Source: Escherichia coli O127:H6 str. E2348/69
Lineage (GTDB): Bacteria; Pseudomonadota; Gammaproteobacteria; Enterobacterales; Enterobacteriaceae
Strand: one strand, 5' to 3'
Length of the DNA: 64,000 bases
Assembly: GCF_000026545.1 (NCBI RefSeq)
Contig: NC_011601.1
The position numbers and the translations under genes are program-made. Positions within the stretch are counted from its first letter, which is position 1. Every line of letters begins with the position of its first letter. A model generated the notes under the pieces. That model saw only the letters and a list, made by a program, of their open reading frames with translations. It had not been told where the DNA came from and ran no database searches. Shown in pieces: positions 40,088 through 41,739 of the stretch.

Positions 40088-40134
40088 AAAACAGCTTTAA
40101 GGGGCGAAAGCCCCTCTGATTATCTGTCTCTTGA

Positions 40135-41508
40135 TCAGATCTCCTGATCAAGAGACTTCATCACCAGGTAACCCTCAACCATATCCTGAAGTCTGAACCA
40201 GCCATCCCACATGACTACCCAACCGGGGCGACCGGTGCGTTTGCTGTCATGCCATCGCCCCAGTTTCGCCAGTTTCAGACAGGCCCATTTCAGTGTCGGC
40301 ATCTGTGACGGAAGCGGTTTTCCTTCCAGCTTAACCCACAGCAGTTTCCACTCTGTCGGCGTCAGTATTTTCTCACAGCTGTCATTTTGTGTTTCTTCAC
40401 TGATACCGCCCTGCCGCAGGCCCAGCACCCGCACCGCGATAAACGCCTTGATAACCACCATGCGCTCGAGGTTATCCCGGGTCTGCATTCGCAGCGATTC
40501 CACACATGTACCACCACTTTTCCACGCCTTGTGGTATTCCTCTATCAGCCAGCGTCGCTCGTAATGGCTGACGATACGTCGCGCATCGGCGGCACTCGCC
40601 ACTTTTTCTGACGTCAGCAGATGCCAGCAGGCGCCGTCCTCTGCCTGCTCCCGGCAACAGACATACGTGAGCGGGAGCGCCTGGCCGCTGTTGTCGGGAT
40701 TTTTTATGCTGACTTCGCTGTAACTGATGAACATCCGGGCCTGGCGGGCTGCCCGCCCGCCTTTTTGCATCACATTCAGCGTGTGGCTTCCCGCGGTTGC
40801 CAGGACTTCCGGCAGTTCGAAGAGCTTGCCGGGTGCTTCTTCCAGCCGGCGATTCTGTGCTGCACGCACCACGAAGCGCTGCCCGTGGCTGACTTTATAA
40901 TGCAGGTAATGCCAGATATCCGCTTCCCGGTCACAGACAGTGATTACCCGTTTCTGTATCTCCCCCAGCCGTTCGGCCATGCGCTCCGAAGCCTGCTGCC
41001 AGCGGTAACTTTCTTTTTCTTCATAGGGACGTTCTTTTCGCTGGTGCTTAACACCGTAGGTGTCCGTGGCACGACTCCAGCGCTGCTGTTCGATAAGACC
41101 GACTGGCAGGGCGCTGTCGGGGGCGTACATCAGGACAGAGTGAGCCAGCAGCCCGCGCGTCTTCGGGTTAGTGGTGGTATTCCCCAGGTCATCAGATGCC
41201 GTACTGTGACTGAAGTTAATGGTGGTGGTGTCTTCCAGCGCGAGGAGCAGCGGATGAGCCTCACATGCCCTTACAGTGGCGGTAAATCCGGCTTCGGCAA
41301 TGGCTTGCGGGGACACAGACGGGTTACGTATCAGGCGGTACGCACCTTCAACCTGAGCAGTGGACTGGGATGATTTCACAATAGAAAGACCTGCATGCTG
41401 AGCGAGAGAAGAGGCCAGTGACACAAGGCGTCGTGTACGACGCGGATCACCGAGACGGGCATGTCCAAACTGCTCGTTAGCCCATGAATAACAATCAGAA
41501 AGTACCAT
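40135..41508 (-). CDS. IS50-like DDE transposase (Tnp_1 family)
   Basis: 457-aa ORF; N-terminal GDPRRTRRLV...EGAYRLIRNP and VCDREADI, RWLIEEYHKAWKSG motifs parallel Tn5 transposase; stop codon embedded in the terminal repeat as in IS50. Confidence 0.85.
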   Translation of the reverse strand: MVLSDCYSWANEQFGHARLGDPRRTRRLVSLASSLAQHAGLSIVKSSQSTAQVEGAYRLIRNPSVSPQAIAEAGFTATVRACEAHPLLLALEDTTTINFSHSTASDDLGNTTTNPKTRGLLAHSVLMYAPDSALPVGLIEQQRWSRATDTYGVKHQRKERPYEEKESYRWQQASERMAERLGEIQKRVITVCDREADIWHYLHYKVSHGQRFVVRAAQNRRLEEAPGKLFELPEVLATAGSHTLNVMQKGGRAARQARMFISYSEVSIKNPDNSGQALPLTYVCCREQAEDGACWHLLTSEKVASAADARRIVSHYERRWLIEEYHKAWKSGGTCVESLRMQTRDNLERMVVIKAFIAVRVLGLRQGGISEETQNDSCEKILTPTEWKLLWVKLEGKPLPSQMPTLKWACLKLAKLGRWHDSKRTGRPGWVVMWDGWFRLQDMVEGYLVMKSLDQEI

Positions 41509-41672
41509 AACAGACCCGAAGAAAATGAAATATAAGAGAAGATCAACAGGTGAGGAAAAAGTTCAAAAAATCGCTGCCGGGGAGGAAGGAAACTACCGGA
41601 TGGAAAGAGTCCCCCTAAAGCAGACTGACAGACATCACAAATCCCCGGGTGGGGATTTGTGTATAAGAGACA
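40137..41672 (-). mobile_element. IS4-family, IS50-like insertion sequence (about 1.54 kb) with 9-bp target-site duplication CTGATTATC
   Basis: One end is CTGTCTCTTGATCAGATCT (19/19 with the Tn5/IS50 inside end as recalled); the other is CTGTCTCTTATACACAAAT in reverse complement (2 mismatches to IS50 outside end); identical 9-bp flanks at 40128-40136 and 41673-41681. Confidence 0.85.
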
Positions 41673-41739
41673 GCTGATTATCGGGTTTAGCGCGCTATTG
41701 CCTGGCTACCGCTGAGCTCCAGATTTTGAGGTGAAAACA

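Follow-up and report, generated by a model that had tools for sequence, protein, structure and literature searches.

The window, a stretch of 64,000 nt of the Escherichia coli O127:H6 E2348/69 chromosome, carries an insertion sequence between lamB (38610-39950) and malM (start at 41740). The element lies 3′ of the REP cluster that follows lamB, the position that had already been read from the sequence alone, and is oriented antisense to the malK-lamB-malM transcript. The features of the locus, in coordinates of the window, are:

39963..40117, plus strand: REP/BIME cluster 3′ of lamB with the hairpin GGGGCGAAAGCCCC (Rfam naRNA4); the element lies directly at its 3′ edge
40116..40123, no strand: left copy of the 8-bp target-site duplication CTGATTAT, from the junction comparison; the empty site holds a single copy
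40124..41673, minus strand (that of the transposase gene): complete copy of ISEc13, 1550 bp, IS4 family, IS50 subgroup; 100% identity to E2348/69, termini as in other copies
40124..40142, plus strand: stop-codon-side terminal repeat CTGTCTCTTGATCAGATCT, 19/19 to the Tn5/IS50 inside end
40126..40156, no strand: hairpin with a 13-bp stem and a 5-nt loop, formed by the terminal repeat (40126-40138) and an inverted copy (40144-40156)
40135..41508, minus strand: transposase ORF of 457 aa, uninterrupted, identical to WP_000244358.1; its TGA stop lies inside the left end
40540-40542, 40930-40932 and 41230-41232, minus strand: codons of the DDE triad, E323, D193 and D93, aligned to Tn5 E326, D188 and D97
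40743..40761, plus strand (that of the mal operon): strongest terminator-like site within the element, 7 G-C pairs followed by TTTTT
41541..41566, minus strand: putative tnp promoter region, by position and homology, with a -35-like TTGAAC (41561-41566) and a single GATC (41541-41544)
41636..41661, no strand: perfect 11-bp hairpin CACAAATCCCC / GGGGATTTGTG, overlapping positions 13-19 of the promoter-side end
41655..41673, minus strand: terminal repeat on the promoter side, CTGTCTCTTATACACAAAT, which agrees at 17 of 19 positions with the Tn5 outside end and at 17 of 19 with the laboratory mosaic end
41674..41681, no strand: right copy of the target-site duplication CTGATTAT, from the junction comparison

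The copy of ISEc13 between lamB and malM

Three records of enteropathogenic E. coli O127:H6 E2348/69 match the element and its flanks with 100% identity, and the ORF at the same position of the RefSeq genome is annotated as 'IS4-like element ISEc13 family transposase' (WP_000244358.1). By ISfinder convention, at least 95% amino-acid or at least 90% DNA identity to the reference entry defines the same element; here, the name ISEc13 is assigned indirectly, through the RefSeq/PGAP (NCBI) naming of the identical protein. The element is a known object, a catalogued insertion sequence whose position in E2348/69 is already annotated in RefSeq, and as a finding a catalogued element at an annotated position of a well-known pathogen genome is of small weight. 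In the searchable literature the term 'ISEc13' was present only within mobile-element lists. With 1550 bp, ends starting CTGTCTCTT and an 8-bp duplication, the element has the properties of the IS50 subgroup as tabulated in Table 1 of PMC2266710 (1350-1550 bp, ends starting 5′-CT, direct repeats of 8-9 bp).

The sequence-only reading had given the element as 40128-41681 with a 9-bp duplication. The 9-mer CTGATTATC indeed occurs twice, at 40116-40124 on the left and at 41674-41682 on the right, but the 19-bp end already begins with the final C of the left copy. Without exception, the other copies examined start with CTG and end with CAG, and nearly all of them have 1550 bp (two have 1549 bp and one diverged variant has 1558 bp). 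Since these termini recur and the C belongs to the 19-bp end, the duplication is the 8-bp CTGATTAT, and the span has to be replaced by 40124-41673. It is very unlikely that the duplication has 9 bp as in Tn5 and that the element has lost its first base. Apart from the CTGATTATC string on both sides, 9-bp duplications at 4 of 15 other sites would speak for it, but 8 bp is the commonest class, the ninth base does not match at those sites, and the occupied site exceeds the empty one by 1558 bp, which is 1550 + 8. The duplication can be read at 12 distinct ISEc13 sites, this one included; it has 8 bp in 8, 9 bp in 3 and 11 bp in 1. A 9-bp duplication hidden by palindromic ambiguity was ruled out, because suffix-prefix matching gives one unique length per site.

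The flanks joined with one CTGATTATC matched many E. coli strains with 100% identity over all 252 nt, which shows that the lamB-malM site is also found without the element; at least 80% of this query was matched in 4066 genomes. In contrast to the length of the duplication, the view of a recent, unrearranged insertion that had been drawn from the identical flanks still holds, in that the insertion is clean and strain-specific, with an empty site elsewhere. Other copies, which the sequence-only reading had left to a survey of genomes, are frequent: near full-length ISEc13 (at least 80% of the query) is present in 869 of 5426 complete E. coli genomes, with as many as 32 places in one genome and 1176 on plasmids. 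The insertion between lamB and malM was seen only in the three E2348/69 records among these 5426 genomes. The same transposase protein is encoded at 10 different sites of one genome. Cluster members examined for variant proteins were mostly partial sequences, and further look-ups led mainly back to sites already seen or to the ends of contigs.

As judged from these comparisons, the element is almost certainly an intact, recently transposed copy of the known ISEc13 (IS4 family, IS50 subgroup) in the E2348/69 chromosome. There is little probability that it is an inactive relic or a fixed copy that no longer moves. Matching duplications are absent from the copy on pMAR2 and from two chromosomal copies elsewhere, but such copies are explained by recombination between copies, as seen from the swapped flanks of L014 and L015. 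Moreover, an intact ORF of identical sequence recurs in many copies and strains, neither end is truncated, the duplication is perfect, and the insertion is restricted to one lineage, whereas thousands of strains retain the empty site.

What the insertion does to malM can be approached from the strand of the mal transcript. Terminator-like sites number 6, compared with 1.7 ± 1.3 in shuffles, and all are on the plus strand; the site at 40743..40761 is a candidate cause of polarity on malM. Because the element is antisense and carries terminator-like sites on the transcript strand, it probably uncouples malM from the malK promoter. MalM is not known to be required for maltose use. A scan of 39900-41900 on both strands for consensus sigma-70-like promoters found none, neither one facing malM nor even one for tnp; as it detects no promoter even for tnp, the scan lacks the sensitivity to exclude one that points outward. 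In the Rfam scan, the REP-derived naRNA4 beside the element (74.8 bits at 39963-40033, below threshold at 40054-40116) was the only match, and there was none inside it.

Transposase and terminal repeats

The transposase is encoded in one ORF without a frameshift, as is characteristic of the IS4 family, and it scores 514 bits against NCBIfam NF033590 (IS4 family transposase; cutoff 160). Pfam matches precomputed for the identical protein are PF14706 (Tn5-type DNA-binding), PF01609 (DDE) and PF02281 (Tn5 dimerisation); the Tn5-type N-terminal DNA-binding domain and the C-terminal dimerisation domain (PF14706, PF02281) place the protein in the IS50 subgroup. The best solved relative is the Tn5 transposase (PDB 4DM0, 1MUH, 1MUS; E 6e-84, residues 6-453), with which 184 of 436 aligned positions are identical (42%).

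The catalytic residues follow the signature that the IS4-family review gives, DDE plus Y-(2)-R-(3)-E-(6)-K (PMC2266710). Y316, R319, E323 and K330 align with Tn5 Y319, R322, E326 and K333, and the DDE and YREK residues are invariant in an alignment of 14 sequences, comprising the ISEc13 transposase, twelve relatives and the Tn5 transposase. Further residues of Tn5 are kept in the ISEc13 protein, namely R26, R27, R30, R62, R210, K244, W298, W323, K330, R342, N348, K439 and R440, several of which are DNA-contact residues. A difference is seen at the start of the Tn5 inhibitor: the residue aligned to Met56 is V53 with the codon GTT, which is neither Met nor GTG, and an Inh-like product from this position is therefore unlikely. 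In some relatives (P0080, P0092, P0111, P0119) there is a Met at the inhibitor-start position. Judging from this codon, the regulation of ISEc13 differs from that of IS50 at least in the inhibitor start.

The two terminal repeats are unlike each other. On the stop-codon side, CTGTCTCTTGATCAGATCT occurs once in the window without a mismatch (0 expected in shuffles) and includes two GATC Dam sites (40133-40136 and 40138-40141) and the TGA stop of tnp. On the promoter side, CTGTCTCTTATACACAAAT is also unique within the window; it has 2 mismatches to the Tn5 outside end and contains the DnaA-box-like TTATACACA at 41658-41666.

Most of what had been read from the letters is borne out by these alignments: an IS50-like element with Tn5-type ends, one of them the exact inside end with both GATC sites and the embedded stop, the other two mismatches away from the outside end, and a transposase that is only moderately similar to that of Tn5. 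On proper alignment the ends thus remained Tn5-like, and the protein proved to be far from near-identical to the IS50 transposase. That the element is an ordinary IS50 copy, the module of Tn5, has practically no probability. An inside end identical to that of IS50 and an outside end that is nearly so would fit, but the protein alignment (42% identity to Tn5/IS50R transposase) already refutes this identity; in addition, the element has 1550 bp and an 8-bp duplication, is annotated as ISEc13 and has V53 in place of the start codon at Met56.

Ends and hairpins in the IS50 subgroup

The sequence-only reading had regarded ends this conserved around a diverged protein as unusual. For comparison, relatives were sampled by scanning one genome per species, which gave 80 loci of 38-57% identity from many Gammaproteobacteria, and the elements were delimited by an unbiased inverted-repeat search followed by a targeted end search. 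The unbiased search returned CTGTCT-type termini in most loci. The targeted search, to which very different ends are invisible since it allowed at most 4 and 3 mismatches, left about 6 of 52 loci without recognisable ends, several of these being truncated contigs. The unbiased search often ran on into the flanks; these overruns come from palindromic targets and not from longer elements.

In 43 distinct relatives with an intact ORF and 41-77% protein identity, the promoter-side end shares 14-19 of its 19 positions with the ISEc13 end, with 19/19 in many elements of Vibrio, Alishewanella and Alteromonas at about 50% protein identity. The stop-codon-side end of the same 43 relatives agrees at 15-19 of 19 positions, save for one call of 12/19 (L046, an alternative end call) that is probably spurious. 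The exact 19-bp inside end of IS50 was found again in separate lineages (L019, L021, L076, L077, L094, L110). Of the 43 promoter-side ends, 39 have T at position 4 and the Tn5 outside end, with its A, shows the minority state; the laboratory mosaic end agrees with the family majority over the first 16 positions. The supposed peculiarity of ISEc13 therefore does not hold up, as the 43 relatives keep nearly the same two asymmetric ends. As indicated by this distribution, the pairing of an outside-type end (with TTATACACA) and an inside-type end (with GATC and stop codon) is ancestral to the IS50 subgroup.

The same pair of ends across the relatives argues against a recent chimera, in which a distant IS4-family transposase gene would have newly gained IS50 ends by recombination. 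The 19/19 identity of the inside end is striking beside 42% protein identity, but the two end types also flank relatives in Photorhabdus, Xenorhabdus, Vibrio, Photobacterium, Alishewanella, Alteromonas, Legionella and uncultured Gammaproteobacteria, which span the full 41-77% of protein identity and have the exact inside-end 19-mer in several separate lineages. The end-contacting residues of the Tn5 transposase are conserved in the ISEc13 protein, and joint inheritance of ends and protein accounts for the data without any recombination, so that we consider a chimera extremely unlikely. What is retained by the whole IS50 subgroup is a pair of unlike ends, including T at position 4. This T makes the laboratory 'mosaic end' of Tn5 hyperactive, and natural relatives could supply Tn5-compatible transposases for tagmentation tools.

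Hairpins lie just inside both ends. The one on the stop-codon side encodes the C terminus ...KSLDQEI* and is arranged in the same way in most relatives; the 77-nt stretch that contains it folds as RNA with -28.9 kcal/mol (z -3.0), and the hairpin alone has -14.8 kcal/mol with DNA parameters. On the promoter side, the relatives have, in this order, the end, a GC-rich hairpin that shares its outer arm with the end (AAATCCC...GGGATTT), a T-run, TTGAAC, about 17 nt and GATCTGATC. Their inner stem varies between elements yet stays paired: 3 of 6 consensus pairs are changed on both sides, in 6 to 9 of 19 sequences. By its position this hairpin looks like an inward-facing terminator that would shield tnp from outside transcription, and by analogy the promoter next to it may be Dam-sensitive like T1 of IS50. 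The promoter-side hairpin of ISEc13 is the counterpart of the terminator-like hairpin of the relatives, but no T-run adjoins it; the T-run and TTGAAC come only after about 62 additional nt, and a single GATC stands where the relatives and IS50 have GATCTGATC.

Target choice, proposed mode of action and comparison with known systems

The targets of ISEc13 and its relatives are hairpin palindromes, GC-rich and terminator-like, into whose middle the elements insert; the resulting duplications have 8-12 bp and are symmetric about the dyad. Reconstruction of 35 distinct target sites of ISEc13 and relatives gave duplications of 8 bp in 18, 9 bp in 9, 10 bp in 6, 11 bp in 1 and 12 bp in 1. In about 60% of the sites, compared with 1.2% of random window positions, the duplicated bases occupy the exact centre of a stable hairpin, with as many stem bases on the left as on the right; typical forms are 2+4+2, 3+3+3, 2+5+2, 3+4+3, 2+6+2 and 3+6+3. 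Complementarity was also measured between the six bases that flank the duplication on the left and the six on the right, and compared with that of arms re-paired among sites. For the relatives, it is 4.35 versus 2.77 ± 0.24, a value reached by 0 of 2000 permutations, and for ISEc13 it is 4.83 versus 3.84 ± 0.24, reached by 1 of 2000. The stems themselves vary from site to site (cccc/gggg, ggcca/tggcc, gcca/tggc, gggag/ctccc), and many have A- or T-runs as in intrinsic terminators; by eye, no bias was evident in the orientation of the element relative to the T-run. The copy in the window is a weak example, CCCCT, CTGATTAT, CGGGT, adjoining a hairpin.

It is tempting to speculate that ISEc13 and its IS50-subgroup relatives choose their targets by DNA shape. 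The elements may recognise the dyad of GC-rich, hairpin-forming palindromes, mostly resembling intrinsic terminators, and join at loop-symmetric positions with a stagger of 8 to 12 bp even for one element; we put this forward tentatively, as a serious possibility rather than a probability. One Alishewanella element of 1481 bp has duplications of 8, 8, 9 and 10 bp (L052, L053, L054, L069). A variable stagger together with the fixed active-site geometry of a Tn5-type transposase suggests that the target is distorted or extruded (cruciform-like) rather than B-form DNA. If true, shape-based choice would equip these elements with a built-in 'safe site' in the spacers of genes and, if confirmed, it would be a natural case of shape-directed targeting in the best-understood family of bacterial transposases. 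Targeting of terminators or hairpins by IS4/IS50-type elements is not described in the searchable literature, a scope that leaves aside ISfinder notes and subscription papers, and the consulted sections of the IS4 family review (PMC2266710) contain nothing on hairpin targets. This family-level preference is the only part of the present work that may be new.

For ISEc13 itself, the most likely mode of movement is that of Tn5/IS50. Both of the unlike 19-bp ends would be bound and paired by a single DDE transposase, the element would be excised via DNA hairpin intermediates, and its 3′ ends would be joined to target positions with a stagger of, in this case, 8 bp. Replication and methylation are likely to control transposition as they do in IS50, because the promoter-side end contains a DnaA-box-like sequence, the stop-codon end has two Dam sites, and the putative promoter contains a GATC.

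With the ISEc13 annotated by RefSeq/PGAP, no difference was found: hundreds of E. coli chromosomes and plasmids carry this 1550-bp element, ends included, and the lamB-malM insertion site alone is specific to the E2348/69 lineage. With IS50/Tn5 (IS50R; 1MUH, 1MUS, 4DM0) the element shares a single-ORF DDE/YREK transposase with the N-terminal and C-terminal domains of Tn5, an outside-type 19-bp end with a DnaA box, an inside-type 19-bp end with two Dam sites and the stop, and a GATC in the promoter region. It is unlike IS50/Tn5, which has a length of about 1534 bp in the case of IS50, in its protein (42% identical), in T for A at end position 4, in lacking a Met at the inhibitor start, in the hairpins just inside both ends and in a duplication of usually 8 bp compared with a fixed 9 bp in IS50. 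Insertion of Tn5 is nearly random, whereas ISEc13 strongly prefers palindromic targets.

Two other systems come close in their choice of target. IS231A belongs, like ISEc13, to the IS4 family, has a target that is symmetric and rich in G/C, and makes duplications that vary in length; according to Hallet et al. in 1994, its target is reportedly GGG-N5-CCC. It belongs to a different subgroup and its ends start 5′-CAT. Its G/C blocks lie inside the duplication, whereas the complementary arms of the ISEc13 type lie outside and differ in sequence from site to site. Duplications of 10-12 bp are cited for IS231A in the review (PMC2266710). A second likeness is to two elements of the IS3 family: insertion of ISEc13 and its relatives in the centre of extragenic hairpin palindromes, a neutral 'safe' site, resembles that of IS1397 and ISKpn1. 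IS1397 and ISKpn1 insert into the loops of REP palindromic units. They differ in an unrelated transposase family, a circle intermediate, duplications of 3-4 bp and one specific repeat family as target, whereas ISEc13 and its relatives target varied terminator-like hairpins.

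Insertion sites and duplication length

The targets of ISEc13 and its relatives of the IS50 subgroup are GC-rich hairpin palindromes, many of them terminator-like, and the insertions lie at their centre. Based on the junctions of loci L003-L017 and L022-L092, together with window 40100-40123 and 41674-41690, about 60% of 35 sites were hairpin-centre insertions, as compared to 1.2% of random positions, and the complementarity of the flanking arms was higher than base composition accounts for. The target duplication varied from 8 to 12 bp and was not constant even within one element, with the hairpin loop as symmetry centre (L052, L053, L054 and L069, which are all one 1481-bp element of Alishewanella jeotgali; L004; L092). 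Tn5-type transposases produce a target duplication fixed at 9 bp and, therefore, this variable length is odd.

In the window, the REP cluster 3' of lamB (39963-40033) matched naRNA4 of Rfam above threshold (74.8 bits), and a second REP unit (40054-40116) matched the same family below threshold. The 3' edge of this second unit is the exact position of ISEc13.

Probable rearrangements at other ISEc13 copies

Two further copies were found in a single assembly:

GCA_045344535.1, CP148541.1, about 2.305 and 2.366 Mb: ISEc13 copies L014 and L015

These copies have exchanged their flanks, the left flank of each matching the right flank of the other. This exchange points to recombination between them that inverted about 60 kb. 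Another copy is located between finO and hok on pMAR2 of E2348/69 (L002). It has no matching duplication, and this suggests a rearrangement or deletion beside it.

Hairpins within the element

At the stop-codon side, the element end and its own inverted copy a few bases further in form a strong hairpin (window 40126-40156). The same hairpin is present in the last ~35 nt of most relatives, and it encodes the conserved C-terminus KSLDQEI. It may stabilise the 3' end of the mRNA, act as a terminator or have a role at the DNA level. Further inside, five terminator-like sites are found on the + strand (window 40588-41005), antisense to the transposase gene; their number exceeds that in shuffled sequences.

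The promoter-side region was compared over the first ~60 nt of the elements in L024, L029-L073, L092 and L110 and window 41561-41673. Directly inside this end, the relatives have a terminator-like hairpin that is conserved with compensatory changes; a T-run comes next, then TTGAAC and GATCTGATC. ISEc13 has retained the hairpin but differs by ~62 additional nt ahead of the T-run and by a single GATC where the relatives have GATCTGATC.

Comparison with Tn5

Neither Met nor GTG is present in ISEc13 at the start position of the Tn5 inhibitor protein (codon V53, window 41350-41352), whereas Met occupies this position in relatives from Vibrio, Shewanella and Flocculibacter (P0080, P0092, P0111, P0119). 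The ISEc13 branch may have lost the inhibitor. Of 43 natural elements, 39 carry T at position 4 of the promoter-side end, and the A in the Tn5 outside end is the minority state. The engineered hyperactive mosaic end equals the natural majority of these 43 elements across its first 16 bases.
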